Shown here: one piece after another, positions 1,258-29,134 of the stretch
How positions within the stretch are numbered: the first letter of the stretch is position 1
Layout: each line of letters starts with the position of its first letter
NCBI GenBank assembly: GCA_034658595.1
Contig: JAYEFG010000010.1
Location: 353 to 64,352, forward strand
Direction of reading: 5' to 3'
Length of the DNA stretch: 64,000 nucleotides
From: Fidelibacterota bacterium
GTDB lineage: Bacteria > Fidelibacterota > Marinisomatia > Marinisomatales > TCS55
Program-made: the position numbers and the translations under genes
Notes under the pieces: model-generated
Told to the model about the DNA's origin: nothing
Database searches by the model: none
The model's input: the letters and a program-made list of their open reading frames with translations, nothing else

Positions 1258-3132
1258 ATGAATTATCGGCTGAATCCAAAATGGTTCCTGTTTTTCCTTG
1301 TTTTCATCAGCGGATGCGCGAAGGATAAGCAGACTAACAACATGTTCCAGATACCCAAACCCGCCTTCAAGGATAACCCCCCCCAGGTTTCATTTTCAGA
1401 TTTCATTGGTTCTGAGCAGTGCCAGACTTGCCACGAGGATATTTTTGCCCAATGGAAAAATTCAACTCATGCAAATGCGGGAGGCAAACCGGAGGAAATA
1501 AAAATTATAGCGCCCTTTGACGGCAAGCCAATCCCCTTAGCAGATGTTACGGTTTATCCTGAACAGAAAAATCAGGGTTATCAATTCAGAATCATTGACA
1601 ATGAAACAAAGCATGAACAAACATTCATCGTTGAAGCAGTGGTTGGCGGCGGCTTTATGGTTGGCGGCGGGACACAAACATTTTTCGGGAAACATGAGGA
1701 TGGGACCTACAGATTTTTACCCTTTGATTTCAGTAAGGATGAGAATGACTGGTTTGTGCAGGTCAAAGGTTCTGAAAAATGGAAAAAGGCCGATAAAGAT
1801 ATAGAATTGGATCAATTGGTTAATTGGCCGCCTCACCGGGCATTGGGGGAAATAGAGGATATTTCCAACTGCCAAAATTGCCATGGTAGCCAGGTAATAA
1901 GCCGCAAGGCAGGGAACAGGTATAAAACACAATTTACCACTTTAGCCATTAACTGCGAGTCCTGCCACGGCCCCGCAAAAACACATGTGTCTTCCATGTC
2001 TGATATTGTCCGGGGTATTACTGCAAGCGCAACAAATATCGGAATAGAAACATTGGCAGGCATTACGCCAAAGAAAAGTTTAAATATCTGTTTTCAATGT
2101 CACGCGGTTAAAACACCACTGAAAAACGGGTTTCTTCCGGGAGAGAATATGGAAGAATTTTATTCCCTTCGTATGGCCTTGCTGGGAAATGAAAATCCAT
2201 ATTCAATTGACGGCAGGATTAAATCATTTGGATACCAGCAAAATCACCTGTTCAGCGATTGTTTCATTAATGGCGCAATGACCTGTACCAGTTGTCATAA
2301 TCCACACAGCCAGGATTACCAGGATATTAATCGGGAAAAATTAGCCAATCGGTTTGATGACCGGCAATGCACAGCCTGTCACGCCGCAAAAGCAGAAAAT
2401 ATTCCAGCCCACACTTTTCATGTTTCAGGCTCAGAAGGGAGTAAGTGTATCTCCTGCCATATGCCCTTCCGCCAGCATGTAGGGATTGGAAATGAAATCA
2501 GGTTTACACGATCCGATCATACTGTTTCAATTCCACGCCCTGTTTACGATCAGTCACAAGGGTTTGAATCTGCCTGTATTCAATGTCATTCTAATCAAAC
2601 TGAAGCGGCGTTACAGGATTATGTAAATGAATGGTGGGGTGTTTTAAAACCACTTAATCCTGTTATCGCTAACCGCTTAAAAATAACCGCTAAAACAAGT
2701 CCGGCAGAAGCTGCGGAATTGTTGCTGCGCCCGGAATTGAGTCATAGCATGGGGCAATTTTCCAATATGAGCTATTTTATTAAGCGCTATCTATCCCCGG
2801 GGATGTCCGTATTGGATCAAAATATAATAAAGAAATTGATGGCTTATGCTCAACAAGATGATATTGATTTAAAAGCGCTGGCTATTGCCGGATTACATTA
2901 CAGCCAGTATAACAATCCACAAGTTCAATTATTTATCGCTGGGCAATTGGAAAGTATGGAGAAAATGGAACAATCCGTCCGTCTTCGATGGGGTATGATT
3001 TTAGATTATTTCGGTACTGTATTTTATTTAGTTGGTGACCGCCCGCGGGCAATCGAATGTTATGAACTGGCAAAACAGGTTTTGCCGGATGATAAAAATA
3101 TCCGGGAAAACTTAGCCCGGGCGAAAACTTAA
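1258..3132 (+). CDS. octaheme c-type cytochrome lipoprotein with TPR-like C-terminal domain
   Basis: Eight CxxCH motifs: CQTCH, CQNCH, CESCH, CFQCH, CTSCH, CTACH, CISCH, CIQCH. Lipobox-type signal (FLVFISGC). The last ~170 aa are helical and TPR-like (GDRPRAIECYELAKQVLPDDKNIRENLARAK). Confidence 0.85.
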   Translation: MNYRLNPKWFLFFLVFISGCAKDKQTNNMFQIPKPAFKDNPPQVSFSDFIGSEQCQTCHEDIFAQWKNSTHANAGGKPEEIKIIAPFDGKPIPLADVTVYPEQKNQGYQFRIIDNETKHEQTFIVEAVVGGGFMVGGGTQTFFGKHEDGTYRFLPFDFSKDENDWFVQVKGSEKWKKADKDIELDQLVNWPPHRALGEIEDISNCQNCHGSQVISRKAGNRYKTQFTTLAINCESCHGPAKTHVSSMSDIVRGITASATNIGIETLAGITPKKSLNICFQCHAVKTPLKNGFLPGENMEEFYSLRMALLGNENPYSIDGRIKSFGYQQNHLFSDCFINGAMTCTSCHNPHSQDYQDINREKLANRFDDRQCTACHAAKAENIPAHTFHVSGSEGSKCISCHMPFRQHVGIGNEIRFTRSDHTVSIPRPVYDQSQGFESACIQCHSNQTEAALQDYVNEWWGVLKPLNPVIANRLKITAKTSPAEAAELLLRPELSHSMGQFSNMSYFIKRYLSPGMSVLDQNIIKKLMAYAQQDDIDLKALAIAGLHYSQYNNPQVQLFIAGQLESMEKMEQSVRLRWGMILDYFGTVFYLVGDRPRAIECYELAKQVLPDDKNIRENLARAKT

Positions 3133-8670: not shown

Positions 8671-10361
8671 TTAGCCTGGTATTCTATTTTACCATTTACA
8701 ATTGTATAGAGTATTTTTGTATCCAGTATCTTATCCTCGGGAATAGTGATAATATTCTGAGAAAGGACGGTAAAATCAGCATATTTTCCCACTTCGATGG
8801 ATCCCTTGATATCTTCTTCAAAAGCGCCGTAAGCGGCATTGATCGTATATGATTTTAAGGCCTCAAACCGTGTCATTTTTTGTTGGGGCTCAAAACCGCC
8901 CTTTGGTTTTCCTTTTAATGTTTGACGGGATACGCTGGCATAAAATGACGCAATGGGGTCAATCGGCTCTACAGGAGCATCGGTACCATTCACAATTATT
9001 GCTCCCCGATCCATAAGCTCCCGCCAGACGTAAGCTCCTTCAACAATGCGTTTTTTACCAAGACGGTCAATGGCCCATGGGCGGTCCGATGAAAGGTGAA
9101 TTCCCTGCATGGAAGCAATAACACCCAAATTTCCAAATCTAGGGATATCTTCAGGATCGATATGCTGGGCATGTTCAATGCGCCAGCGGTGATTGCTGGC
9201 TTTTTTTGGATTTTTCTTAAATGCTTTTTCAAATTGATCCAGCACCTCCCGGTTGGCGCGGTCCCCGATAGCATGGGCATTGACCTGAAAACCATTGGCC
9301 AAACCATCCGTTGCCACCTCGTACACATATTCCATGGATTGGGTGGCCATGCCGAGATGGCCCGGACGGTCACTATACTCGTCCAATAGCCAGGCACCGC
9401 GGGAGCCCAAGGCTCCGTCTGCATTAAGTTTGATTGAACGGATTGTAAGATGATCATTCCCGGTACCAACCTCAGGCCCTTTTTTATACCACTCCTTTAG
9501 CAGGTCAGGGTCCCTGCTGGTGAGCATCACATAAAGTCGAATCCGTAATGCTTCACGATCAAGGCCTTCCCGATAGGTTGCAATTGCACTGTGACCGGAG
9601 CCTGCATCCTGAAATGACGTGATTCCATTTTCCAGGCAGGCCTGAACTGCTAGATCCAACGCTTTCTGACCGCTTCCCTCTGATGCAGAAGGTACATGGC
9701 GGCTGATAAGCCCCTGAGCCCGCTCATTAAAAACGCCCGTTGGATTCCCCCGGAGATCCTTAATGATTTCGCCACCAAAACCAAATTCAGTCTCTGCTGT
9801 GACACCGGCAATTTCCATCGCTTTGGCATTCCCAAATCCAGCGTGACCGCTGGCATGGGTGAGCCACACAGGATTATTAGGTGAAACGGCACTGAGTTTA
9901 TCATGGGTTTGAAATCCCTTGACTGTTGTTTCCGGATTGGGCTCCCACTTGCTTTGATGCCATCCTCTGCCCAAAATCCATTCACCCGCTTCAGTTTTTT
10001 CAACAGCATTGGCAACCAAATCCACCAAGTCATCATAATTGGCCGCCTTTGTCAGGTCCAAACGCATTTTTGCATAACCCAAGCCTATGAAATGACCATG
10101 ACCTTCGATCAATCCGGGAACCAGAGTAGCACCTTTCAAGTCAAGGATCTTGGTGTTTGCATTAATCAGTGAACCGACCTCCTTTTTTTTACTGACAGCA
10201 ATGATTTTACCATTTTTCACGGCTATAGCTTCAGCAATTGGATTAAATTCATTTACCGTATAAATGATACCATTTTGAATAATGAGGTCAGCCTTTTTGC
10301 TTTCACAAGCAATCAGGAATAAAAACATAAGTGAGAGTGTGTGAATTAATCTTGGATTCAA
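8667..10361 (-). CDS. amidohydrolase family (YtcJ-like, Amidohydro_3) lipoprotein
   Basis: EGHGHFIGLG metal-binding start motif and later HAIGD / HAQH blocks. The start is moved to TTG 10361 (GGAGG 5 nt upstream), giving lipoprotein signal MNPRLIHTLSLMFLFLIAC. Confidence 0.8.
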   Translation of the reverse strand: MNPRLIHTLSLMFLFLIACESKKADLIIQNGIIYTVNEFNPIAEAIAVKNGKIIAVSKKKEVGSLINANTKILDLKGATLVPGLIEGHGHFIGLGYAKMRLDLTKAANYDDLVDLVANAVEKTEAGEWILGRGWHQSKWEPNPETTVKGFQTHDKLSAVSPNNPVWLTHASGHAGFGNAKAMEIAGVTAETEFGFGGEIIKDLRGNPTGVFNERAQGLISRHVPSASEGSGQKALDLAVQACLENGITSFQDAGSGHSAIATYREGLDREALRIRLYVMLTSRDPDLLKEWYKKGPEVGTGNDHLTIRSIKLNADGALGSRGAWLLDEYSDRPGHLGMATQSMEYVYEVATDGLANGFQVNAHAIGDRANREVLDQFEKAFKKNPKKASNHRWRIEHAQHIDPEDIPRFGNLGVIASMQGIHLSSDRPWAIDRLGKKRIVEGAYVWRELMDRGAIIVNGTDAPVEPIDPIASFYASVSRQTLKGKPKGGFEPQQKMTRFEALKSYTINAAYGAFEEDIKGSIEVGKYADFTVLSQNIITIPEDKILDTKILYTIVNGKIEYQAN

Positions 10362-10499: not shown

Positions 10500-11969
10500 A
10501 TGTCAAAAGGCGTAACTCCCCAAAGTAAAGATTATGCAGCCTGGTACACCGATGTAGTTACCAAGGCCGGCTTAGCCGATTACGGTCCCGTGAAAGGAAC
10601 TATGGTGGTGATGCCCTACGGGTTTTCCCTGTGGGATAATATTAAGGAAACATTTGACCGCATGATTAAAGAAACAGGCCATGTAAATGCCTATTTCCCC
10701 TTATTTATTCCAAAATCATTTTTGGCCCGGGAAGCGGAACACGTGGAAGGCTTTGCCAAGGAATGTGCGGTTGTAACCCATACCCGTCTAAAGGCCGATG
10801 ATAAGCACGGTCTTGTGGTGGATCCGGAATCAAAGCTGGAAGAAGAAGTAATTGTCCGCCCCACATCAGAAACTGTTATCTGGTCTATGTATAAAAAATG
10901 GATTCAGTCCTATAGAGATCTGCCCCTGCTTATCAACCAGTGGGCCAATGTAGTCCGCTGGGAAATGCGTACCCGGCTTTTTTTGCGCACTACAGAATTT
11001 CTTTGGCAGGAGGGCCACACCGCTCACGCCACAGCAACAGAAGCAGAAGCAGAAGCACGTCTTATCCTGGAATTATACCGCAAATTAGCTGAAGATTACC
11101 TGGCCATGCCTGTTCTTACAGGGTTGAAGTCGGAAGCAGAAAAATTTGCCGGTGCTGAACGGACATATTGTATTGAATCAATGATGGGGGATAAACGGGC
11201 CCTGCAGGCTGGAACATCCCATAATCTTGGTCAAAATTTTGCCAAAGCTTTTGATGTCACCTTTCAAACCCGGGATAACAAGGAAGAATTGGTCTATGCT
11301 ACCAGTTGGGGTGTCAGCACGCGTTTGGTTGGCGGTGTTATCATGACCCATGGGGATGATAAGGGTCTCCGCCTACCACCGAAGATTGCCCCTTACCAGG
11401 TTGTGGTTGTTCCTATTTTTGGGGATGAAGAGAGCAAACAAACCGTCAAGGCCTACCTTGATCCTATTTTGTCTGATCTTCGAAATGTTGGCGCCAGGGT
11501 CCATGAGGATTGGCGAAGAGACAGCCCCGGATTCAAATTCAATGAATGGGAAATGAAGGGTGTACCTCTGCGGCTTGAAGTGGGACCAAAAGATATTGAA
11601 AAAGGGAAAGTTGTATTGGTTCGTCGTGATAATGGTGAAAAACAATTCGTTGAAAAAGACGGGATTGCAATGTGTGTTCCCAAATTGTTGGATGAAATTC
11701 AAATTAACCTTTTCGAACAAGCCAAGGCCTTCCGTGAAGAGAATACACATACAGTTTCATCCTATGATGAATTCAAGGAAGTGATTGGCAATCAGGGTGG
11801 TTTTATTCGCTGTGGTTGGGATGGAACAGAGAAAACAGAAATGGTTATTAAAGAAGATACCAAAGCAACGGTTCGCTTGATTCCCTTTGATGAAAATCCG
11901 AAAGATTTGACCTGTATTTATTCCGGGAAACCCGCCAAAAACGAAGTCATTTTCGCTAAGGCTTATTAG
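10500..11969 (+). CDS. proS: proline--tRNA ligase, archaeal/eukaryote-like type
   Basis: N-terminus DYAAWYTDVVTKAGLADYGPVKGTMVVMPYG, class II motifs, and a C-terminal ProRS-C1 type ending ...FAKAY. Confidence 0.95.
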   Translation: MSKGVTPQSKDYAAWYTDVVTKAGLADYGPVKGTMVVMPYGFSLWDNIKETFDRMIKETGHVNAYFPLFIPKSFLAREAEHVEGFAKECAVVTHTRLKADDKHGLVVDPESKLEEEVIVRPTSETVIWSMYKKWIQSYRDLPLLINQWANVVRWEMRTRLFLRTTEFLWQEGHTAHATATEAEAEARLILELYRKLAEDYLAMPVLTGLKSEAEKFAGAERTYCIESMMGDKRALQAGTSHNLGQNFAKAFDVTFQTRDNKEELVYATSWGVSTRLVGGVIMTHGDDKGLRLPPKIAPYQVVVVPIFGDEESKQTVKAYLDPILSDLRNVGARVHEDWRRDSPGFKFNEWEMKGVPLRLEVGPKDIEKGKVVLVRRDNGEKQFVEKDGIAMCVPKLLDEIQINLFEQAKAFREENTHTVSSYDEFKEVIGNQGGFIRCGWDGTEKTEMVIKEDTKATVRLIPFDENPKDLTCIYSGKPAKNEVIFAKAY

Positions 11970-11978
11970 ATATAGGGA

Positions 11979-12034
11979 AAGTTTACTAAACCTTGAAGGA
12001 TTAGTAAACTTGTACACATAGGAATAGTAAACTT
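11979..12034. promoter_or_regulatory. perfect 11-bp inverted repeat plus a third direct copy (candidate operator, or weak proS terminator)
   Basis: AAGTTTACTAA (11979-11989) and TTAGTAAACTT (12001-12011) are exact reverse complements with an 11-nt spacer. TAGTAAACTT recurs at 12025-12034, 8 nt before the recO start codon. Confidence 0.35.
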
Positions 12035-12042
12035 ATATAGAA

Positions 12043-12729
12043 ATGATCACCAATTCAACCGCAATTGTCCTCAAGCGGTTTCCCTATAGCGAGACCAGTA
12101 TCATCGCTCGCTGCTTTGTGAGGGATATGGGTAAGGTTAGTTTTATCATCCATGGTGCTCACCGGAAGAAATCACCCATGGGGGCCTATTTTCAGCCCAT
12201 CAATTATTTGGACCTGGTTTATTATTTTAAGGAATCCCGGAATCTCCAAACCGTTTCCAAGGCGGCCTTTTCCCAATCCTGGTCTACCATTCCAGCGGAC
12301 CTTAAGAAAATATCTTATGCTATGGCCATGATCGAACTCACGGATAAATGTTTAACGGACTATGATCCCCATGCAAATTTATTTGATGAATTGGTAATTG
12401 CGCTAAAGACGGTTGAAAATGAAAAGAATCAACTTAACCTGGCCTATTGGTTTTACCAATATCAGGTTTTGAAAATACTGGGCTTTAAACCCGATTTTTC
12501 TCAGGCGGAAGTGGATTATGTTCCTCTTCCCAATCCATTTGCAGGGCCTAATTCAAAAGCCGTTTTTGAATATTTTCAAATGGAGCAGTCCGGTATGAAC
12601 AAAGGTATCACTATCACCGCTCAGGATCGAAAAGTTATCAGCAGTTATTTGAATACATGTATGGGGATTCATTTTGAGGGCGTTCAAAATTTAAAGTCCT
12701 TCCAAATTCTACGTGAGATGGTAACCTGA
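12043..12729 (+). CDS. recO: DNA repair protein RecO
   Basis: N-terminal OB-fold signature (AIVLKRFPYSETSIIARCF), typical length, C-terminal helical domain. Confidence 0.85.
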   Translation: MITNSTAIVLKRFPYSETSIIARCFVRDMGKVSFIIHGAHRKKSPMGAYFQPINYLDLVYYFKESRNLQTVSKAAFSQSWSTIPADLKKISYAMAMIELTDKCLTDYDPHANLFDELVIALKTVENEKNQLNLAYWFYQYQVLKILGFKPDFSQAEVDYVPLPNPFAGPNSKAVFEYFQMEQSGMNKGITITAQDRKVISSYLNTCMGIHFEGVQNLKSFQILREMVT

Positions 12730-13577
12730 TGGTCTATCGCGGCACATTGAGATGGGAAGGAGAAAAATCATTCTTAGAAAATGAAAATGGTAATCGTTTA
12801 CTGGAAAATCACAAGATCTGGAATGGATATATCCTCCATTGGCGAAATCAACCTGTTTGTGCCCGGGAGCTCGCCCAGAAAGATTATGAAAACAATGAAC
12901 CAATCATAATCATGTGGCCGGACACACCGCCATCTGGAAAGCCATTTGTAGAAATATATTATAATGAACGGCTGGTGAAATATCCTGCATCAACCTTTGG
13001 ACATAACGCCATAAATGTGAATGGAGAATTTTTCAATTTTTCCCATCTTATAAATGAAAATGAAGCTATGGATGAGGCGGAATATATGTACCGCCCTGCT
13101 CTTGGAGAATTTGCCCCTTCTCCCCACAATGGAAAATTTGAGATACTGGAAGACGCCACCGCTTATTATGATAAGTTTGGACGGAATTTTATGCGTTCGA
13201 TCCATGTTTTACGCATCGAAAGGATTGATACAATTCATTTATCGGATATATTTCACGACATGCTAAAATCTATTCATACAACACCGGTCCATCCGAGAAA
13301 CCCGGAGAAATACCGGGATTTCAATTTCTTTAACCGTAGCTGTACTACCATAATCAGGGATGGTCTCAGAAAATATGGATTCCAAAAAATTAGAGGCGTT
13401 TTACCTCGGGATTTTTTCATTAGTGCGGCCATGGTATTGGGACAGGTTAATGAATTAAACACCCGGCTCTATAAACGCCCGCAGCTTAAAGTACCGGAAG
13501 CTCCTTTTAGTCAAACAACAACTCCTTTGAATCCGATGAATTGGATTCGTCTGAAAAATCTGCGAAGTATGGAATAA
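12729..13577 (+). CDS. hypothetical protein with His...Cys signature (possible permuted papain-like/DUF4105-like fold)
   Basis: 282-aa ORF whose ATG overlaps the recO stop (TGATG). Contains GHNAINVNGEFFNFS and, about 110 aa later, FNRSCTTIIRDGL. Confidence 0.45.
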   Translation: MVYRGTLRWEGEKSFLENENGNRLLENHKIWNGYILHWRNQPVCARELAQKDYENNEPIIIMWPDTPPSGKPFVEIYYNERLVKYPASTFGHNAINVNGEFFNFSHLINENEAMDEAEYMYRPALGEFAPSPHNGKFEILEDATAYYDKFGRNFMRSIHVLRIERIDTIHLSDIFHDMLKSIHTTPVHPRNPEKYRDFNFFNRSCTTIIRDGLRKYGFQKIRGVLPRDFFISAAMVLGQVNELNTRLYKRPQLKVPEAPFSQTTTPLNPMNWIRLKNLRSME

Positions 13578-13580
13578 AGA

Positions 13581-16145
13581 ATGAAACGAACCTGTATAAT
13601 CATCATTTTATCTATCATCTTTTCTAGTTGTGAAAAACGATCTTTAGATACATCACCCGGTGTCTCGTGGCAATTAGCTGAACATCGGTCTGCAACAATT
13701 TCTGACGTACGTTACAAAATCACTTTGTCCATCCCTGAGAAAGTGAATGAACCGATTATGGGCTCAGAAACAATCCAATTTTTATTATCGGAAACGGGGC
13801 AGGAGGTGGTCTTGGATTTCCGCCAGCCTGCTGAATACATCCATTCGGTTAAAATGAATGGGAAGCCCATGGATTACATTTTCCGGGATCAGCATATTAT
13901 AATGGAGGATAATCAATTTTCAATCGGCGAAAACCAAATTGATATTGTTTTCAGAGCAGGCGATATGTCACTTAACCGAAATGATGAATTTCTCTACACA
14001 CTGTTTGTACCAGACCGAGCGGCTACGGCGATCCCTTGTTTTGATCAGCCGAATTTAAAAGGCCGTTATACTTTAACCCTTCATACGCCGAGCGACTGGG
14101 CGGCCATTGCCAACGGACCCCTTCTGGATGAAATTGAAAAGGACGGACAACGCACATTTCATTTTGGCGAAACACGGCCCGTGAGTACATACATACTGGC
14201 TTTTGTGGCCGGGAAATTTCAGAAAATTTCAGCAAGTCGAAATGGACGCTTAATGACCATGCTCCATCGCGAGACCGATAGTGCAAAAGTGGCCAGGAAC
14301 ACAGAAGCAATCTTTGACCTCCACGCTGATGCCATTGCCTGGCTGGAGGAATATACAGGCATTGATTATCCATTTCAGAAGTTCGATTTTGCCTTGATTC
14401 CCGTTTTTCAATACGGCGGCATGGAACATCCCGGAGCGATTTTTTATAAGGATAGCGGCCTGTTTTTGGATGAATCAGCCACAAAAAGTCAATACCTTGG
14501 ACGTGCAGGTCTAATTGCTCACGAAACGGCTCACATGTGGTTTGGAGATTTGGTAACAATGAGTTGGTTTGATGATGTGTGGACCAAAGAAGTCTTTGCC
14601 GGTTTTATGGGCGGAAAAATTGTCAATCCTGCCTTTCCCGAGATAAACCACGATCTGCGGTTTTTAAGCAATTATTCTTCTGCATATGGGGTCGACCGCA
14701 GCTTAGGCCCTAACCAAATCCGCCAGCCGCTTGAAAACTTGAATATGGCGGGGACACTTTATGGCTCAATTATTTACGCCAAAGCACCGGTGGTTATGAA
14801 ACATCTGGAATTATTGGTGGGGGAAGAAACATTCCAAAAAGGAATGCAAAAATACCTTGGTGAATTCAGCTACGGGAATGCCACATGGCCGGAATTAATC
14901 GAGATTATGGATGAATTATCGGAGGAAGACCTGGCTTCATGGAGTAAGGTTTGGGTGGATGAACCGGATCGGCCCATCATTGAAATGGATTTGAAACTTG
15001 CGCCTGACGGTTCAATCCGGCGATTGAAACTGAAACAAAAAGACCCCGGAAGAAAAAATCGGGTTTGGGGCCAGAGACTGAAAGTTCGTTTGGGGTATGC
15101 CGATGAAGATAAAGTAATTTCTGTTTATCTGAAAAATCGATCTGTAAATCTAGCTGAAGCCAAAGGACTTCCCCGCCCTGATTATATCTTACCCAACGGT
15201 GAAGGGATTGGCTATGGATTCTTCCGGATGAATGCAGACAGCAGAGAATATTTAAGCAAGCATCTGCCAGAAATTGATGATCCCTTTATCAGAGGAATTG
15301 CGTGGCTGAATCTCTGGGATGATATGCTCTATGGCCATACGTCACCGGCGGATATGATTTATCTTGCTGTCAGATCGTTAAAAACAGAAACGGATATTCT
15401 AAACATTCAACGTACCTTGGGAAGAATCCGCAGCACTTATTGGAATTATATAACTCATGATCAACGGATTAGAATGGCACCTGATTTGGAATCAATAATG
15501 AAAGGTCATCTGGATGAAGCTGAAACAGTTTCATTAAGGTCTTCCTACTTCAGAACCCTTCGTTCAATTATCCTTTCTGATAATGGGTATAAATGGCTGA
15601 AAGGTATTTGGACCGAAACCGATTCTATCCCCGGACTGAAATTTTCGGAGCGGGATTTCATAGCGATGGCCACCGAGTTGGCCTTGCGGGGAAAAAGGGA
15701 TTCACCGGAAATTTTAACAGCCCAGCTTAACCGAATAAACAATCCTGACCGGAAAGCACGGTTTAAATTTGTTATTCCGTCACTTTCCAATGATATATTA
15801 GTGAGGGATCAATTTTTTGAAAGTCTTAAAAAAGAAGAAAATCGTGCTCGGGAGCCTTGGGCTGGGGAAGCCGTGCGCCATTTGCACCACCCCCTGCGGG
15901 CATTGTCATCGGAAAAATATATTAGGGTAAGTCTGGAATTGTTAGAGGAGATACAGCGGACAGGGGATATATTCTTTCCGGCGCGCTGGGTCAGTGCAAC
16001 CTTATCAGGACACCAATCAGTATCGGCAGCAAATATCGTTAACCAATTTCTAGAGGATCATCCAAATTATTCCCCCAGACTTAAGCTGAAAATACTTCAG
16101 GCTGCTGATGGTTTATTCCGTGCAGTGGAGATTCTAAATCAATAA
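13581..16145 (+). CDS. M1 family aminopeptidase (aminopeptidase N-like) lipoprotein
   Basis: GGMEHPG (GAMEN-type) motif, plus HETAH followed 18 residues later by E (HExxH-x18-E). Signal IIILSIIFSSC. Confidence 0.9.
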   Translation: MKRTCIIIILSIIFSSCEKRSLDTSPGVSWQLAEHRSATISDVRYKITLSIPEKVNEPIMGSETIQFLLSETGQEVVLDFRQPAEYIHSVKMNGKPMDYIFRDQHIIMEDNQFSIGENQIDIVFRAGDMSLNRNDEFLYTLFVPDRAATAIPCFDQPNLKGRYTLTLHTPSDWAAIANGPLLDEIEKDGQRTFHFGETRPVSTYILAFVAGKFQKISASRNGRLMTMLHRETDSAKVARNTEAIFDLHADAIAWLEEYTGIDYPFQKFDFALIPVFQYGGMEHPGAIFYKDSGLFLDESATKSQYLGRAGLIAHETAHMWFGDLVTMSWFDDVWTKEVFAGFMGGKIVNPAFPEINHDLRFLSNYSSAYGVDRSLGPNQIRQPLENLNMAGTLYGSIIYAKAPVVMKHLELLVGEETFQKGMQKYLGEFSYGNATWPELIEIMDELSEEDLASWSKVWVDEPDRPIIEMDLKLAPDGSIRRLKLKQKDPGRKNRVWGQRLKVRLGYADEDKVISVYLKNRSVNLAEAKGLPRPDYILPNGEGIGYGFFRMNADSREYLSKHLPEIDDPFIRGIAWLNLWDDMLYGHTSPADMIYLAVRSLKTETDILNIQRTLGRIRSTYWNYITHDQRIRMAPDLESIMKGHLDEAETVSLRSSYFRTLRSIILSDNGYKWLKGIWTETDSIPGLKFSERDFIAMATELALRGKRDSPEILTAQLNRINNPDRKARFKFVIPSLSNDILVRDQFFESLKKEENRAREPWAGEAVRHLHHPLRALSSEKYIRVSLELLEEIQRTGDIFFPARWVSATLSGHQSVSAANIVNQFLEDHPNYSPRLKLKILQAADGLFRAVEILNQ

Positions 16146-16203
16146 ATTTGGGAACGGAATAAACCCGGAGAATGTATAAATTGCCGAAAATAATGCGATT
16201 ATC

Positions 16204-17031
16204 ATGAAATATCAGTTCCAGTCCGAACAGGGGAATGTAGCGTTTCGCCCCCAGTATTTCACCGAAGTAATCAAAGTATTGATTGCGGTGAATGTTGTTG
16301 TATTCTTTTTTCGCTATATTGCCCAAAACCAATTGGACCTGGCCCAGGTATTCGGCCTTTCTTCCGGATCAGTATGGCCGATGATTTGGCAGCCTGTTAC
16401 ATACATGTTTATCCATGGAGATTTCTTTCACATTTTCATGAATATGTTTGTCTTGTGGATGTTTGGGTCGGAGCTGGAATCCATCTGGGGCCGCCAGGGA
16501 TTTTTAAAATTTTATTTTATCACCGGTGTAGGGTCAGGACTGGTTTGGCTTTTGTTTAATATGGGGAATCCATATACGGTGTTAATTGGCGCCAGCGGGG
16601 CCATTTACGGATTGCTTTTGGCTTATGGCCTCATGTTCCCCAACCGAAAGATTCTGATTTATTTTCTGTTTCCGGTTAAAGTAAAATATTTTGTGATATT
16701 TTTAGGCACCATTGCCTTTGTGTCATCCATGGGAACTTCAGGATCAAATATCAGTCATTTAACCCACTTATCAGGGATGATAATCGGTTATATATATCTT
16801 AAATCACCCGGGAACTGGCCCAAACTGCGGCTATTGATCAATTCAAAATTTGTTGAAATGAGACACAAAAAAGTTGAGCGGAAAGAAGCCCGTAAAATGA
16901 ATATGCAACAAACAGTGGACCGCTTGTTGGATAAAATCAATAAGGTTGGTTATGATGGCCTTTCAGAAGATGAAAAAGATGAATTATATATCCATAGTCG
17001 GCATTTGGGTAAAGATCTGGAAAAAGACTAA
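16204..17031 (+). CDS. rhomboid family intramembrane serine protease
   Basis: GASGAIYGLL (catalytic Ser) and HLTHLSG (catalytic His) within a polytopic membrane core. Charged C-terminal tail. Confidence 0.85.
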   Translation: MKYQFQSEQGNVAFRPQYFTEVIKVLIAVNVVVFFFRYIAQNQLDLAQVFGLSSGSVWPMIWQPVTYMFIHGDFFHIFMNMFVLWMFGSELESIWGRQGFLKFYFITGVGSGLVWLLFNMGNPYTVLIGASGAIYGLLLAYGLMFPNRKILIYFLFPVKVKYFVIFLGTIAFVSSMGTSGSNISHLTHLSGMIIGYIYLKSPGNWPKLRLLINSKFVEMRHKKVERKEARKMNMQQTVDRLLDKINKVGYDGLSEDEKDELYIHSRHLGKDLEKD

Positions 17032-17258
17032 TATGTTTAAAATTAAAAAAATTCAAAAATAGATATAGAATTGAATCCGCCCGATTGCCCCATTGAGATT
17101 ATAGTAATCCGGGGATGTATTTTGCCACCATTGGTAGGAAGAATATTCAGTGTTGGCTTGGGGATGTTGTTGATGGAGATTACCCGTGATATTCTCACTT
17201 GGTATGGAATTAAAGGATGGTGTTAATAACTAAAAAAGTTTATAACTACATTCAAATG

Positions 17259-19983: not shown

Positions 19984-20000
19984 GCGCCAAAAAGTAAGTG

Positions 20001-20040
20001 AAAAAGCGTCCCGCATTTAAATGCGGGACGCTTTTGTTTT
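20001..20040 (+). terminator. rho-independent terminator
   Basis: Perfect palindrome AGCGTCCCGCATTT/AAATGCGGGACGCT (20005-20032) followed by TTTTGTTTT. Confidence 0.9.
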
Positions 20041-20051
20041 ATAGTGTTTTG

Positions 20052-20867
20052 ATGTATAGGAAAAAATATTTAGCCGTCCTTTTATGTGCGACAAGTGTTC
20101 TGCCGGCCGCATTTGAACATACTTTTCTTTCCCCTATGAATGCAGGCCTTGGCCTGAGCTACGTTAATTTTAATCGAAATATTTTAGGAACGATTATGGA
20201 TCCCGCATCTCTAGCTCAAGGAAACCGTATTCAATTCGCTGGACAAACGGGCCGCAGGTTTAACTTAAAACCACTAACCCATCAAAATTTTGTGGGTGGT
20301 TTGCCAACCCGATGGGGGCATTTTGGATTTGGAATCCAAACATTTGGAATGAAACAATATACCGAATCCACTATTTCCATTGCTTTTGGTAAACGGTTAA
20401 AACAACGTGTTCAAGGTGGATTTGCAGTTAATATGTATTCCCTTTCAATTCCTGACTATGGATCGGCTACCTCTGTTGGGATTTCTTTGGCATGGCATAT
20501 AGATTTAAATGGCTGGATTCAATGGGGGACAATTTTACATAATATCAATAAACCTGCAATAGGTGTTACCAAAGATTTTCTACCCCAAATTATTATCACT
20601 GCCTTGTCATTTCATCCAACTAAAAACATATCTACTCAACTTGAGTGGGAACAGGATACAATTTACCAAGGCCACTTAAAAGCAGGTTTCAGCTTTAAAC
20701 CGAGAAAATGGTTAATGGTCCACACTGGATTTGTTTCAGGTACAGGGCAGGTGACCGGCGCAATTGGTCTCAATATTTATCAGTTCAATTTGAATTATGC
20801 TATGGCGAATCATCCAAACCTGGGGCCGTCCCATTGGATGGGGTTTAATATTCCTCTGGGTAAATAA
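20052..20867 (+). CDS. outer-membrane beta-barrel protein, PorQ/PorP-like suspected
   Basis: The track ORF starts at 19998, inside the terminator. I prefer ATG 20052 (MYRKKYLAVLLCATSVLPAAF signal). The FLSPMNAGLGLSY...DPASLAQ block resembles PorV/PorQ N-terminal blocks. Strand-rich sequence. Confidence 0.4.
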   Translation: MYRKKYLAVLLCATSVLPAAFEHTFLSPMNAGLGLSYVNFNRNILGTIMDPASLAQGNRIQFAGQTGRRFNLKPLTHQNFVGGLPTRWGHFGFGIQTFGMKQYTESTISIAFGKRLKQRVQGGFAVNMYSLSIPDYGSATSVGISLAWHIDLNGWIQWGTILHNINKPAIGVTKDFLPQIIITALSFHPTKNISTQLEWEQDTIYQGHLKAGFSFKPRKWLMVHTGFVSGTGQVTGAIGLNIYQFNLNYAMANHPNLGPSHWMGFNIPLGK

Positions 20868-22488
20868 CCCATTCATATCGGCTCAAACTTCTGAAGATAT
20901 CCTGGGGTTACTTCAACAGGACGAGGAGGATGCCATCCATGAGGACGAATTAGTTCTCTTGGATGATATTCTTTCCAGGACATCCGGGGTAAACAAGGAG
21001 GCGCTTCAGGATATGCTGGCGCTTACCTTCTTAAACGAAGAAGATTATGGTCATATTCAAACATCATTACGACAGGCCGATTTCACAGGACTAATTGCTT
21101 CAGATGAGATTTCTTCCCTGTTGAGATTCATCCTTCATTCACTGCGAAATAATAAAGGAATTCCTCACAAAGTTTTTCTGCAGCAGCATACATCAAGAAC
21201 CGATGGAAACCGCTACCGTTGGAGAGCCAGGATGAATACACCCATCCAGGAGATTGGCGCTTTATCGGTGCGAAACCGAGGCTCAATGGATATTTTAGAT
21301 CAGCATAGTTTTTATATTGTTCGAAATACAAATAATGGCCATTGGATTGTGGGAGACCATCAGATGGCATTTGGGTTTGGTCTTGGTTCGGGAAAGCCTT
21401 TTCCCCCAAGGAAGGGATGGAGCACTGTAAATAAAGGCGCTTCAATTTATAAAAATGGTTTAAAAAGTTATAAGTCCTCAACAGGGATAAGTCGAACGCG
21501 GGGATTTGCTGTGGAACAATCTACAACAATCGGTACAATTTCCTTATCCCATGGCCAGACAAATTCAGATATTTACAGAAATAACAGTACCACACAGGGA
21601 GCGTGGCAGTATGGGAATAAATTCATGTCGGTGGGAACTGTCTTTACCCATGGTATTCAATCTGTCTTTGCATCCTATAATCGAGGGCAAGTCCGGACGG
21701 GGGGAGAGATATCATTTGGCAGCGGAACCCCATCAATGGTATTGGGATTTCATTATGGAATCCGGCCATTTAAATATTTGGTTCAATACAGAAATATATA
21801 TGCCCAATCCATGGGATCCATGGGAAATCCAATGGTAGAGTGGCACGGTTCGGAAATTTCGGAAAGGGGGCTGTTCCAGGGAGCATTAATTCGAGTAGGA
21901 AAATCCAGGATTATGATTTACGCTGATGCTTTCCATCATCATCTAAGAAAAATTGATGGATATGAATTTGGGATTCGAAGTGAAACTAAAATGAATCGGC
22001 ACCGCATTGTGTTTCAAATCAAAACTGAAAAAAAGGATTCGGAGAATGAAAGTGTTTATGCGCCCTTGGTTTCTCCCGCTTTTACGAATAAAAATGGCAT
22101 CAAATTGGAACATCGCTATGATGCAAGACTCTGGCGTACTGATGTAAAATATCAATTTGTCCGCGCCGGTGAGATTAAAACAGATCATAGCCATGGGTTG
22201 GATCTTCGCCTTCATTTATTTCGGAACACATATAAAATCGAACTGGACTGGATGGCAGCCCGGGTGGGGTCGTATGATTCAAGGCTGTATTTCTGGGATG
22301 TGAACCTGCCCGGAGAAATGTTGACACGCATGATGGCCCGGACTCACCACAGCCCGGGGGCAAAGATACTTTTTAATTTATCAAATGGTTCCCGCTTAGG
22401 ATTCAAAATTAGGGCGGATTTTGCTCATTTATCCTTGCGCTCAGAATTTGGAATTTCAGGTGGAATATTTATTCAAGCAGCCCTTTGA
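20797..22488 (+). CDS. large secreted/outer-membrane hypothetical protein
   Basis: 563-aa ORF with a signal-like N-terminus (GWGLIFLWVNNPFISAQ), then an acidic helical region, then a long strand-rich region. The start overlaps the upstream gene by 71 nt and is uncertain. Confidence 0.45.
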   Translation: MLWRIIQTWGRPIGWGLIFLWVNNPFISAQTSEDILGLLQQDEEDAIHEDELVLLDDILSRTSGVNKEALQDMLALTFLNEEDYGHIQTSLRQADFTGLIASDEISSLLRFILHSLRNNKGIPHKVFLQQHTSRTDGNRYRWRARMNTPIQEIGALSVRNRGSMDILDQHSFYIVRNTNNGHWIVGDHQMAFGFGLGSGKPFPPRKGWSTVNKGASIYKNGLKSYKSSTGISRTRGFAVEQSTTIGTISLSHGQTNSDIYRNNSTTQGAWQYGNKFMSVGTVFTHGIQSVFASYNRGQVRTGGEISFGSGTPSMVLGFHYGIRPFKYLVQYRNIYAQSMGSMGNPMVEWHGSEISERGLFQGALIRVGKSRIMIYADAFHHHLRKIDGYEFGIRSETKMNRHRIVFQIKTEKKDSENESVYAPLVSPAFTNKNGIKLEHRYDARLWRTDVKYQFVRAGEIKTDHSHGLDLRLHLFRNTYKIELDWMAARVGSYDSRLYFWDVNLPGEMLTRMMARTHHSPGAKILFNLSNGSRLGFKIRADFAHLSLRSEFGISGGIFIQAAL

Positions 22489-25566: not shown

Positions 25567-26814
25567 ATGAATGTTAATGAATTACAAAAACTAAAAATCA
25601 AAGAATTGGCAGATCTTGCTGCGACACTGAATATCGAAAGTTATTCAGGGTTGAATAAGCAGGAGCTTATCGTCAAAATCCTCGAAGCCCAGAATGAAAA
25701 AGAAGGTGGTGTAACCGCTGAAGGTGTCCTGGAGGTTCTCAAGGAAGGATATGGATTTTTACGCAGTCCGGATTTTAACTACCTTCCCGGGCCCGATGAT
25801 ATTTATGTGAGCCCTTCACAAATTAAACGCTTCGGTTTGAGGACCGGCCATGAGGTTTTTGGCCAGATTCGTCAGCCGAAGTCTAAGGAACGTTTTTATG
25901 CCCTCCTTAAAGTGGATAAAGTAAATGGCCACGATCCGGCGGAGATGAAACGGGCGATCTTATTTGATAATCTTACACCCCTTTATCCAGAAGAAAAATT
26001 TAACCTTGAGGTGAACCCTAAAGACTTATCTACCCGCATTATGGATCTTATCTCTCCGGTTGGGAAAGGCCAGCGGGGCCTCATCGTTGCCCAGCCAAAA
26101 ACGGGAAAGACCGTTTTGCTGCAAAAAGTGGCCAATGCTATTTCTAAAAACCACCCTAAGGTAAGACTGATTATTCTCCTGATTGATGAACGCCCGGAAG
26201 AAGTGACAGATATGAAGCGTAATGTAAAGGCCGAGGTTATTAGTTCCACCTTTGATGAACCGCCGGAACGACATGTTGCTGTAGCTGAGATGGTTATCCA
26301 TAAAGCCCGCCGGATGGTAGAGTTTGGCGATGATGTTGTTATCCTGTTAGACAGTATTACCCGTTTGGGACGGGCCCATAATGCTGTAATTCCTCACAGT
26401 GGAAAAATTCTTTCTGGTGGTGTGGACTCCAATGCCCTGAAAAAACCGAAACAATTTTTCGGGGCCGCCCGGAATACGGAAGAAAGCGGCAGCTTAACTA
26501 TTATCGCCACTGCACTGGTTGAAACTGGCAGCCGCATGGATGAAGTTATTTTTGAAGAATTTAAAGGAACCGGTAATATGGAACTTGTTTTGGACCGAAA
26601 ACTCAGCGATCGTCGAATTTATCCATCATTTGACTTAATTCGATCCGGCACAAGGAAAGAAGAACTTCTCTTGGATAAGAAAGTATTAGCTCGCATGTGG
26701 ATCCTCAGAAAACTGCTCAATGAAATGAATGTTATGGAAGCAATGGAGTTTATACAGGACAGAATGCGGCGAACAAAGACCAATGAAGAATTTATGGAAA
26801 CAATGAGCCAATAA
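25567..26814 (+). CDS. rho: transcription termination factor Rho
   Basis: Rho N-terminal domain, RNA-binding GYGFLR, Walker A AQPKTGKT and the C-terminal RecA fold. Confidence 0.97.
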
Positions 26815-26868
26815 GCCTAAATTCTAGTATCTTAATTACTCTAGGTGTAGTAACTAAGGAGGATGTAA

Positions 26869-27921
26869 ATGAGTTCTAAATACCCAGAAGTTAAGACAAT
26901 TGCTGTCCGTGTCTTCACGGATAAGCCTGTCCGTAAGACGCCTTACCAGGTAAAAGGCGTCCTGATGAATCAATTCCCTGAAGAGGAAATTGTACCCATG
27001 CTTGATGGATCGTATCGTCAGCAGTTTCTTTATCCGCGTGTGCAGGTAAAGATTTTAAATGAACAAATCTACATTATCGGTATCGGTGAAGGCGTTGATC
27101 CAATTAAATCAATTGCTAAAAAGATGGATTTTATGGATTTTGGCAATATTACGTTTCAAGTTCTGGATAATGAAGTAGAAGAACACGATGATAGGTTTCA
27201 GCCGGTTTCAAAATTGATTCGTTACCGGTTTGTGACACCTTGGGTGGCATTGAATCAAACTACAGGATATCGTTATCGGTTTTTGAATAATGTTGATCGC
27301 GTAAATTTTTTGAACCGTCTCTTAGGCCAGAATATTGTTTTTATGGCGCGGGAAATGGGAATGGAACTGGATGAAAACATCTTCACCAAAGTAACACTAT
27401 CATCGCTTTTTCCCCGCCCGGTGGATGAAAATAATTGGGGCGCGTTTGATGGTGAATTTCGGGCCAACTTTGTATTACCAAATTACTTGGGAATTGGGAA
27501 TGGTATTACACGCGGCTATGGTACCTTGTTCGGGTTATTCAATCCTGAAATGTTCTCCTTTAACGAAGGAGATTTACAGGACTTGGAAGCTCAGGCAGTC
27601 AAAGATGATTTTGATGAAGAATCAAAAATTGCCGAATCGGATTTGCAGGAAATTGATGTTAATAAGGTGCCCCGTCCTAAAAAAATCCCCGGTAAAGATT
27701 TAATGCCAACCAAAAGAAGCAAAAAGGTTTTATCGGAAGAATTCCATATTGAGGAAGATGATGCAGTTTACGAAACACATGTGGTTAAGCCGAATTCTGA
27801 ACCGGAGAATAAATCTGAACTTTCCAAGCCAAAGAAAAAACGTGGTAGAAAACCGAAGAAAGACACTTCTGAAGTAAACTATAATTCGGAAAAATACCAT
27901 AAAAAACAGCATAGCCTTTAA
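26869..27921 (+). CDS. Cas6/RAMP-like protein with low-complexity acidic/basic tail (orphan, no CRISPR context)
   Basis: Strong SD AAGGAGG 6 nt upstream. The glycine-rich loop LGIGNGITRGYGTLFG (nt 27490-27522) fits GxGxxxxxGxG. Strand motifs YPRVQVKILNEQIYIIGIG and IRYRFVTPWVALNQ. The C-terminal ~115 aa are acidic, then Lys/Arg-rich (KPKKKRGRKPKK). Confidence 0.45.
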   Translation: MSSKYPEVKTIAVRVFTDKPVRKTPYQVKGVLMNQFPEEEIVPMLDGSYRQQFLYPRVQVKILNEQIYIIGIGEGVDPIKSIAKKMDFMDFGNITFQVLDNEVEEHDDRFQPVSKLIRYRFVTPWVALNQTTGYRYRFLNNVDRVNFLNRLLGQNIVFMAREMGMELDENIFTKVTLSSLFPRPVDENNWGAFDGEFRANFVLPNYLGIGNGITRGYGTLFGLFNPEMFSFNEGDLQDLEAQAVKDDFDEESKIAESDLQEIDVNKVPRPKKIPGKDLMPTKRSKKVLSEEFHIEEDDAVYETHVVKPNSEPENKSELSKPKKKRGRKPKKDTSEVNYNSEKYHKKQHSL

Positions 27922-27934
27922 ATAAGTACTATTC

Positions 27935-29134
27935 ATGACTGTTTTAGCCGATCGCGTCCAACGCGTTAAACCATCCTTCACGCTCGAGATGACCTCCAGA
28001 GCAGCTGAATTACTTGCTCAAGGTGTGGATGTAATCAACTTTAGTGCTGGCCAACCGGATTTTAATACACCGGAAAATATCCGCAATGCGGCTAAAATGG
28101 CAATGGACAAAGGCCAAACAAAGTATACTGCCGGTTCCGGAACACTTGAACTGAGAGAAGCGGTATGCACCAAACTGAAACGGGAGAATCAATTGGAAGT
28201 ATCCCCGAATCAAGTACTTATTTCCAATGGTGAAAAACAAAGTCTCTACTTGGCTTGTCAGGTGCTTTTCCAGGAAGGCGATGAAGTTTTAATTTTTAGA
28301 CCTTATTGGGTGTCTTTCCCTGAATTTGTGACCCTTGCCGACGCTGCACCGGTATTGGTGGATACAAATTCAAAACAGAATTTCGAACCGGACTTGGACG
28401 ATTTGAAATCTAAAATTACGGATCGAGTAAAGGGAATTATTCTTAATTCACCCTCCAATCCCACCGGCAGTGTCTGGTCCAATGAAGCAATCATCACTAT
28501 ACTGGGGATCGCCAAAAAGTATGGTTGGGCTATTATTTCAGATGAATGCTATGAAAGACTCGTCTTTGACGGCGAATTTACTAGTTTACAAAAATTGAAC
28601 AATGACCACCATATCGGTGCCAATATTTTGACCTGCATGAGTTTATCTAAAACATATGCCATGACGGGCTGGCGAATCGGGTATGCTTTCGGTGAAAAAT
28701 CTATCATTCAAGCTATGAGTAAAATCCAGGGGCAGGCAACATCATGTGCAAATTCAATTGGTCAGGCTGCCTCAGTAGAAGCGTTGGTAGGCGATCAATC
28801 TGCGGTTGAAATGATGCGGGTAAAATTTAAGGAACGGCGTGATTTAATGGTGTCGCTTCTCAATGATATTCCCAAAGTGAGTTGTGACGTACCTGGCGGC
28901 GCCTTTTATGCATTTCCGGATTTTTCCAACTATGTAGGCAAATCGTTTCGTGGAGAAAAAATCAAAGATTCTTTTGATCTGTGCGATGTCATTTTAAATG
29001 AAGCAAAAGTGGTTACGGTTCCCGGCGATGGATTTGGTGCGCCGGGGCACGTACGCTTCTCTTATCCATTAGGGGAAGAAGTGATTCGCGAAGGAATTAA
29101 TCGCGTACAAAAAGTTTTAAAACAATTAAATTGA
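27935..29134 (+). CDS. aspartate/aromatic aminotransferase, class I PLP enzyme
   Basis: LNSPSNPTG and SLSKTYAMTGWRIGY (PLP lysine) motifs, typical length. Confidence 0.9.
   Translation: MTVLADRVQRVKPSFTLEMTSRAAELLAQGVDVINFSAGQPDFNTPENIRNAAKMAMDKGQTKYTAGSGTLELREAVCTKLKRENQLEVSPNQVLISNGEKQSLYLACQVLFQEGDEVLIFRPYWVSFPEFVTLADAAPVLVDTNSKQNFEPDLDDLKSKITDRVKGIILNSPSNPTGSVWSNEAIITILGIAKKYGWAIISDECYERLVFDGEFTSLQKLNNDHHIGANILTCMSLSKTYAMTGWRIGYAFGEKSIIQAMSKIQGQATSCANSIGQAASVEALVGDQSAVEMMRVKFKERRDLMVSLLNDIPKVSCDVPGGAFYAFPDFSNYVGKSFRGEKIKDSFDLCDVILNEAKVVTVPGDGFGAPGHVRFSYPLGEEVIREGINRVQKVLKQLN

Follow-up and report, generated by a model that had tools for sequence, protein, structure and literature searches.

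The Cas6b proteins of CRISPR subtype I-B, which process CRISPR RNA (crRNA), are represented structurally by Methanococcus maripaludis Cas6b (MmCas6b; PDB 4z7k/4z7l), whose catalysis involves the complementary histidines H38 and H40, with a contribution from Y47 (PMC3479195). A Sulfolobus Cas6 is devoid of any active-site histidine and cleaves slowly by means of Lys/Arg residues (PMC3652601). Supply of Cas6 in trans is well known (PMC12669027). Many type III loci borrow the protein in this manner. Exapted CRISPR-Cas derivatives include Tn7-like CRISPR-associated transposons, type IV systems and the Streptomyces Cas5-6-7-8 plus STAND module, some of which lack arrays or adaptation genes (PMC8730458). 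The stretch analysed here, referred to as the window, comprises 64,000 nucleotides of contig JAYEFG010000010.1 from a Fidelibacterota bacterium and harbours, at 26869–27921 on the + strand and directly downstream of rho, an ATG-initiated gene for a 350-aa Cas6b-derived protein. The protein is a true Cas6b homolog and not a chance resemblance, it has lost the catalytic histidine pair, and its gene is a vertically inherited core gene of the Fidelibacterota/Marinimicrobia, restricted to that phylum. It is, with high probability, a CRISPR-independent, exapted Cas6. The rho and aminotransferase genes, and every feature of the spacer and of the coding sequence located below, lie on the same strand.

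The open reading frame (ORF) is preceded by a Shine-Dalgarno sequence, AAGGAGG, at 26856–26862, 6 nt 5' of the ATG. Both had been read in this way in the initial annotation, made from the letters of the window without database searches, and the peptides quoted there are all present. The Cas6-type RAMP layout that it had recognised is borne out by profile comparison, as the only Pfam domains in the protein are Cas6b_N (PF17955) at residues 7–107 (26887–27189), scoring 48.8 bits against a cut-off of 25, and Cas6b_C (PF17262) at residues 114–220 (27208–27528), scoring 85.9 bits against a cut-off of 39.4. PADLOC profiles for Cas6 (E 1e-43) and Cas6b (E 1.9e-41) also match, the sequence of PDB 4z7k aligns over 193 residues (E 4.3e-28), and the identity to M. 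maripaludis Cas6b amounts to 27–28% across ~195–220 residues. No NCBIfam model matched the 350-aa protein. An AlphaFold2 model built from a 70-sequence alignment displays a predicted local distance difference test score (pLDDT) above 90 at approximately residues 10–220, with a predicted template-modelling (TM) score of 0.70. Foldseek comparison of this model with the PDB, a check that the annotation had proposed together with the profile searches, returned Cas6b chains of 4z7k/4z7l in the top five positions, 4z7k being the best match, with TM-scores on the target of 0.79–0.86, and placed type IV Cas6 (Csf5) and other Cas6 enzymes at lower ranks. The two domains thus form tandem ferredoxin-like (RNA-recognition-motif) folds, and the glycine-rich loop GIGNGITRGYG (residues 208–218; 27490–27522), already picked out in the annotation, fits GxGxxxxxGxG exactly and ends the second fold, as in Cas6b. 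By homology and fold the family is a member of the Cas6b superfamily. In NCBI the protein, like the family entries for P0001, P0273, P0291, P0296 and P0338, is labelled ‘CRISPR-associated endonuclease Cas6’.

The former active site is located in the segment PMLDGSYRQQF (residues 43–53; 26995–27027). At the positions of MmCas6b H38, H40 and Y47, alignments place P43, either L45 or a gap, and F53, respectively, such that the window protein lacks both the catalytic histidine pair and the tyrosine of Cas6b. The same comparison was extended to 125 representatives, among which the canonical set (n = 73) was defined by possession of both histidines. The tyrosine is kept in almost all canonical proteins, and not one of the 31 Fidelibacterota clade members carries a histidine at either position; position 38 is mostly occupied by Pro or Ser, position 40 by Leu or Ile, and the Tyr position is variable. 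The lysine of the G-loop (K206 in MmCas6b) is replaced by Asn in the clade and several further conserved residues of canonical Cas6b are also lost. The conserved residues gained by the clade are G47, R50, R57 and P182, with R50 located inside the former active-site segment and R57 just downstream of it. Canonical Cas6b and the clade have in common the YPxxQxK motif, including its lysine (K61), the PWxxLN motif, the four glycines of the G-loop and the core of the fold. Thus, catalytic residues were lost and scaffold residues kept, which argues that the fold and the RNA-binding scaffold are retained and that the canonical catalytic apparatus is gone. Loss of the histidine pair does not in itself prove inactivity, because the Sulfolobus Cas6 cleaves without it (PMC3652601).

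The upstream partner of the Cas6-like gene is rho (25567–26814), coding for a 415-aa transcription termination factor that aligns end to end with Escherichia coli Rho (E 1e-156). The linkage was followed in 50 loci fetched through the Cas6-like protein, consisting of 40 from one-genome-per-species contigs and a further set, L041–L050. The 40 loci all derive from Marinimicrobia/Neomarinimicrobiota/Fidelibacterota and encode proteins with 49–91% identity to the window protein over its full length, tail included. In 50/50 loci rho is positioned directly upstream on the same strand, at distances of 12–114 nt, mostly 20–61 (12–33 nt in L041–L050). The class I/II aminotransferase gene (27935–29134) is the usual downstream neighbour, following directly in 37/40 close loci (marine-clade gaps of -4 to 14 nt), and is displaced or absent in L027/L028/L030, L045–L047, L049 and L050. 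Across the 40 loci the block folC-rho-X-aminotransferase-rpmE-DUF1385-prfA-prmC-dnaE is kept, where X is the Cas6-like gene. This confirms the neighbours named in the initial annotation (rho, the aminotransferase, rpmE and prfA) and adds DUF1385, prmC and dnaE; the conservation of a rho-X-aminotransferase order, which it had suggested checking, is invariant on the rho side and usual on the aminotransferase side. L045 and L046 carry different downstream genes with the rho pair intact, and in L047, L049 and L050, at ~30% protein identity, both flanks are unrelated to those of the window and the pair again persists. The invariant unit is therefore rho plus the Cas6-like gene, since it survives changed flanks. 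Several rearrangement breakpoints are situated downstream of the Cas6-like gene and none between it and rho, and the flanking genes are housekeeping genes in all loci with called genes. The linkage to rho is thus conserved across deep divergence. From the rho stop to the aminotransferase start the + strand displays no terminator-like or promoter-like signal, which together with the short gaps would fit an operon with rho, the two genes being presumably co-transcribed.

The region just 3' of the rho/Cas6-like pair behaves as a rearrangement hot spot in L045 and L046. Between the Cas6-like gene and the aminotransferase gene, L045 contains a 6.7 kb insertion (10933–17198 of that locus) with a Trypsin_2 protease and a run of small paralogous genes, of which two encode META domains. 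The same Cas6-like protein is encoded in L046, where the cargo at this place is a different one, an M4 peptidase followed by thrS-infC-rplT-pheS.

A protein search recovered 1251 relatives; the best 120 are all 343–350 aa in length, and among these every organism-named entry is from Marinimicrobia. An exhaustive search with the domain only separated tailed proteins of 300–350 aa (identity of at least 47%), short relatives of 220–264 aa (~30–38%) and canonical Cas6b of 215–235 aa (25–31%). The short relatives are also from Fidelibacterota/Marinimicrobia, some of them on contigs of 3.0–3.4 Mb. One member (P0402) of the cluster of P0160 is labelled Lentisphaeria in NCBI, probably as a result of a mis-binned contig.

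In a reciprocal test the window Rho was searched against metagenome contigs, yielding 80 loci with 61–91% Rho identity, of which 63 had at least 700 nt of downstream sequence in which the gene could be detected with a hidden Markov model of the clade. The Cas6-like gene follows rho in 1/63 of these, the Marinimicrobia-like locus L088, which holds the closest Rho with downstream sequence (81% identity). Neighbour-joining trees of 130 Rho sequences, simple distance trees without support values, gather all Cas6-like-positive loci into one clade, which has 52 tips. Within this clade just L051 is negative, on a contig that stops 1 nt past rho, such that the gene is present in every clade member that can be checked; it is absent from 78/78 loci outside the clade, in many of which rho is followed directly by rpmE-(DUF1385)-prfA-prmC. 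The simplest history is therefore that the gene entered once between rho and rpmE, in the clade ancestor, and was strictly retained thereafter. The identity of the Cas6-like protein co-varies with that of its neighbours (Spearman 0.92 for rho and folC, 0.87 for the aminotransferase and prfA, 0.86 for dnaE and 0.83 for DUF1385), which indicates vertical descent. Thus, with one Rho clade and correlations of 0.83–0.92, the family does not show the patchy, mobile distribution that is typical of cas genes. The Cas6 domain is under strong purifying selection, with a ratio of non-synonymous to synonymous substitution rates (dN/dS; Nei-Gojobori) of 0.01–0.08. The aminotransferase gene also looks like a clade-specific insertion, in this case between the Cas6-like gene and rpmE, as no aminotransferase homolog was detected in the many outside-clade Rho loci (L052–L104) where rho is followed by rpmE-(DUF1385)-prfA-prmC.

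The surroundings of the gene are devoid of CRISPR components. No tandem or direct-repeat arrays, Rfam matches or tRNA were found in the 64-kb window. CRISPR arrays were likewise missing from the 833 kb that the window and 46 loci make up together, and the neighbourhoods of more than 50 related loci contained neither CRISPR nor cas genes. Comparison of 35 other window ORFs of at least 150 aa, situated before the last 4 kb, with Pfam and/or PADLOC detected no cas or defence families; these ORFs carry only housekeeping or metabolic Pfam families, and those without a Pfam match have no PADLOC match. The earlier observation that the 64 kb contain neither a direct-repeat array nor a cas gene therefore stands after repeat, Rfam, Pfam and PADLOC scans, and neither in the window nor in the related loci does the gene adjoin a CRISPR array or cas genes, as Cas6b genes do.

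On balance, we favour the reading that the gene is an exapted Cas6b, the second gene of a rho operon, whose product is a CRISPR-independent RNA-binding protein in the Rho pathway. A single domestication of a Cas6b crRNA-processing protein, basal or nearly basal in the Fidelibacterota (Marinimicrobia/SAR406), would have been followed by vertical inheritance in second place of a two-gene rho operon. The double-ferredoxin fold and the glycine-rich RNA-binding loop are kept, the histidine pair and, usually, the tyrosine are lost, and the protein would have become a sequence- or structure-specific RNA binder that acts without CRISPR and is either non-cleaving or a slow, histidine-independent cleaver. 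That it mainly binds rather than cleaves RNA seems somewhat the better supposition. The protein would be made together with Rho and could share its pathway, where it might, for instance, mark particular transcripts, present them or shield them, be it for Rho-dependent termination or for RNA surveillance; whether it works with Rho at all we regard as an evenly balanced to slightly doubtful proposition. A narrower and distinctly tentative version sees in it a lineage-specific Rho specificity factor that would recognise certain RNA sequences or structures with Cas6-like affinity and, via the conserved tail motifs or the domain surface, recruit or block the Rho hexamer on the transcripts concerned. 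The earlier suggestion of a Cas6-type RAMP in a non-CRISPR, possibly housekeeping role gains support from homology, fold, the absence of CRISPR/cas and the conserved synteny, with the molecular role itself a matter of conjecture.

Several observations weigh against placing the protein in the Rho pathway as an RNA binder. The link to Rho is drawn from conserved gene order, and RNA binding, an RNA target and contact with Rho are presumed properties. The genes rho-rpmE-prfA-prmC are by themselves an old conserved cluster, so part of the linkage could reflect the inertia of an insertion. The window Rho is entirely canonical; the positions that are specific to the clade and rare in the 78 other Rho sequences are D95H (within the N-terminal RNA-binding domain), P176Q (adjacent to Walker A), Q217K and G402R, and with only these four there is no obvious co-adapted surface. 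The conserved R50 and R57 were gained beside the old active site, and the lysine of YPxxQxK was kept. The CRISPR search covered the window and the loci, and a distant array may be present in the genomes of some members. Two further ideas were set aside: co-adapted Rho residues, four substitutions being too few to interpret, and low GC as the cause of needing a Rho helper, which is ruled out as the family spans 37–58% GC.

The same basic residues are central to a rather unlikely but serious alternative, in which the protein would be an RNA endonuclease with a housekeeping task of its own and no tie to Rho. It would operate through a histidine-independent Arg/Lys site on operon mRNA, a stable RNA precursor or a small RNA, and its place after rho would mean constitutive co-expression only. 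Cas6 active sites are plastic, the Sulfolobus solfataricus enzyme (SsoCas6) being active without histidine (PMC3652601), and the gain of R50 and R57, the retention of K61, the very strong constraint on the domain and the ease of a simple insertion into the old rho-rpmE-prfA-prmC cluster would all be compatible with such an enzyme. However, the pairing with rho outlasts independent rearrangement of both flanks at ~30% identity, which inertia explains less well. Besides both histidines, the G-loop lysine (K206) and other canonical residues have disappeared, and no candidate substrate emerged, as the window has no Rfam match and the window plus 46 loci contain no repeat-like elements.

The spacer between rho and the Cas6-like gene carries a conserved GGTGTAGYA element with a TGTAG core (26844–26852), positioned 10–13 nt 5' of the Shine-Dalgarno sequence of the Cas6-like gene. 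Exact matches to GGTGTAGCA in 46 loci are concentrated at this position (13/15, + strand), the single copy in the window compares with 0.24 expected, and TGTAG is invariant across 12 aligned lineages. The element occupies the same spot in L001–L023, L025, L027, L028 and L030 and is absent from L024/L026/L029, from L031–L039 and from all tail-less lineages. A hairpin at GGTGTAGCA, seen in single-sequence folds, was rejected; RNAalifold gave no conserved structure and the element is therefore treated as a linear motif. The 114-nt spacer of L030 (~9848–9961 of that locus) displays a tandem duplication of a ~50-nt unit, each copy with a GGTGTAGAT version of the element, and L021–L023 and L025 contain a second copy, GAGGTGTAGC, that overlaps the Shine-Dalgarno sequence.

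This arrangement suggests an improbable but coherent role as operon autoregulator, in which the protein would bind its own mRNA at TGTAG and tune translation of the Cas6-like and downstream genes. The near exclusiveness of GGTGTAGCA to the spacer, its invariant core and distance from the Shine-Dalgarno sequence, and its duplication in L030 and L021–L023 are in line with such a role. Cas6 proteins bound near the ribosome-binding site can repress translation (PMC13478208), and the role would resemble that of engineered Cas6 repressors of translation. In contrast, the absence of the element from several tailed subclades and from the tail-less lineages means that it is not the universal target of the family, no conserved secondary structure is predicted, and autoregulation alone would leave the retention of the gene unexplained.

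Less probable still is a trans-acting crRNA maturase, serving a CRISPR-Cas locus that has no cas6 of its own and lies in another part of the genome. The precedent of Cas6 supplied in trans (PMC12669027), the presence of cas operons in some Marinisomatota metagenome-assembled genomes (MAGs; PMC11390488) and the NCBI label are on the side of this view. However, CRISPR-Cas is sporadic in the phylum (PMC11390488; preprint 10.1101/2025.05.26.656144), whereas the gene is clade-wide, vertically inherited at a fixed housekeeping locus and under purifying selection. Furthermore, the histidine pair of canonical Cas6b is lost, the 64-kb window and the surroundings of more than 50 loci contain no array or cas gene, and the tail with its conserved motifs has no Cas6 counterpart.

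The C-terminal tail spans residues 223–350 (27535–27918) and is mostly disordered according to the AlphaFold model, residues 285–339 having a pLDDT below 50. The initial annotation described it as acidic and then basic, of low complexity, and foreign to canonical Cas6. The last point is upheld, neither the tail nor its motifs having a counterpart in Cas6, and the tail is indeed charged and mostly disordered. Its charge order is not two-part, as five blocks alternate along it in the window protein (net -11, +6, -5, +5, +2), and low complexity describes it incompletely, as an alignment of 41 sequences reveals three conserved motifs separated by variable, Lys/Arg-rich linkers. Motif i, AESDLQEIDVNKVPRPKK, at residues 255–272 (27631–27684), is semi-conserved. 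Motif ii, SKKVLSEEFHIEE, at residues 284–296 (27718–27756; family form LSEEFxIEE), contains invariant E291, F292 and E295, while motif iii, YNSEKYHKKQH, at residues 338–348 (27880–27912; family form YNSxxYHKKQH), forms the C-terminus with invariant N339, H344, Q347 and H348. In six-frame translations of 1.32 Mb the motifs are confined to the family. The dN/dS of the tail is mostly 0.04–0.2, and its length is graded by lineage, proteins having no tail (~225 aa), a short acidic tail (242–264 aa), or total lengths of ~290 aa, where the sequence already ends in NYNxxEYH, or 320–357 aa. The tail is absent or short in the basal lineages.

Within the favoured reading of an RNA binder in the Rho pathway, the disordered tail would have been added later, in the marine lineages. 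Residues 261–270 have a pLDDT of 86, with a short strand at 260–262, and in the model motif i would pack back on the Cas6 domain; the acidic segment probably folds back on the domain and may be autoinhibitory. The basic linkers could provide added non-specific affinity for nucleic acid, and motifs ii and iii look like partner-docking peptides. Tail-less members keep both the rho linkage and the conserved domain and the core function is therefore independent of the tail. A DNA-binding or nucleoid-tethering role via a Lys/Arg-rich, AT-hook-like tail, for which the basic blocks (+6, +5) and the RGRKP peptide noted in the initial annotation might speak, is the least credible alternative and can be dismissed, as RGRKP occurs in the window copy only and lies in a variable linker of the 41-sequence alignment that conserves no R-G-R-P core with basic residues on either side, the tail as a whole has a net acidic charge (isoelectric point 5.9), and the tail-less members (~225 aa) retain linkage and domain.

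Elsewhere in the window, a 624-aa multihaem c-type cytochrome is encoded at 1258–3132 (Cytochrome_C554/C7, with paired CXXCH motifs and MtrC/MtrF-like domain matches). Two ORFs of 289 and 563 aa, overlapping by 71 nt at 19998–22488, have no Pfam or PADLOC match; the 563-aa ORF stays upstream of an amidase gene across the clade and yet evolves very rapidly, with 25–72% identity where rho has 76–95%. The edge of the window truncates the ORF at 59963–64000; its product, a secreted protein, exceeds 1340 aa and starts with a signal peptide.

The family departs from Cas6b in three features, namely the histidine pair, the association with CRISPR/cas and the mobile distribution, and ‘CRISPR-associated endonuclease’ is therefore a label that it should not carry. 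Given the NCBI label, surveys based on a single cas gene will overcall CRISPR-Cas in Marinimicrobia genomes and MAGs. The phylum (SAR406/Marinimicrobia) is abundant in the ocean, and the protein encoded in its rho operon would offer a natural Cas6 scaffold for RNA binding, compact and free of the catalytic histidine pair, as well as a concrete and testable indication of how Rho-dependent termination might be controlled in a lineage-specific manner. If it did prove to be a Rho specificity factor, it would be the first CRISPR RAMP domesticated into phylum-wide core transcription-termination machinery. In the literature on solo, orphan or stand-alone Cas6, Cas6 exaptation and Cas6 with Rho, of which our coverage is incomplete and priority thus unproven, the family is not described; the 2025 classification and the reviews on exaptation of CRISPR components deal with trans Cas6 and with effector-module reuse by transposons, plasmids and STAND systems and mention no solo Cas6 in a housekeeping operon.

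With Cas6b of subtype I-B (MmCas6b, 4z7k/4z7l) the clade protein shares both Pfam domains, the tandem ferredoxin-like fold, the G-loop and the YPxxQxK and PWxxLN motifs. In contrast, it lacks H38/H40, the G-loop lysine and usually Y47, its gene is a core, vertically inherited gene fixed after rho with no adjoining CRISPR/cas, and many members carry a tail of 20–130 residues with conserved motifs. The Pyrococcus ‘Cas6-related’ proteins (PDB 3ufc/3qjj), which we take to be non-catalytic paralogs binding repeat RNA without cutting it, similarly have a Cas6 fold in which the active site is degenerate. These are, however, extra paralogs in genomes with active CRISPR-Cas and are structurally more distant, appearing at Foldseek ranks 11, 13 and 14 with 13–14% identity and TM-scores of 0.45–0.48. 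The accessory and regulatory proteins of Rho include NusG, Rof/YaeO, Psu and Hfq; to our knowledge none of them is a RAMP and none is known as a fixed rho operon partner. They resemble the Cas6-like protein only in its proposed role as a small modulator of the RNA choice of Rho, and have no sequence or fold relationship to it. The Sulfolobus solfataricus Cas6 (Sso1437) is likewise devoid of histidine and has basic residues at the site (PMC3652601), comparable to R50, R57 and K61 of the clade, but it is a genuine crRNA-processing enzyme of a CRISPR-rich archaeon, belongs to another Cas6 subfamily and has neither rho linkage nor tail. Finally, the exapted CRISPR-Cas derivatives also reuse Cas proteins outside adaptive immunity. 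They keep multi-subunit effectors, nearly all with guide RNAs or on mobile or defence elements, whereas here a lone Cas6 resides in a core operon. Reuse of Cas proteins is thus known in transposons, plasmids and defence systems, and the present family suggests that housekeeping RNA work has taken over a component of CRISPR, a passage from immunity to RNA metabolism that would constitute a different kind of exaptation.

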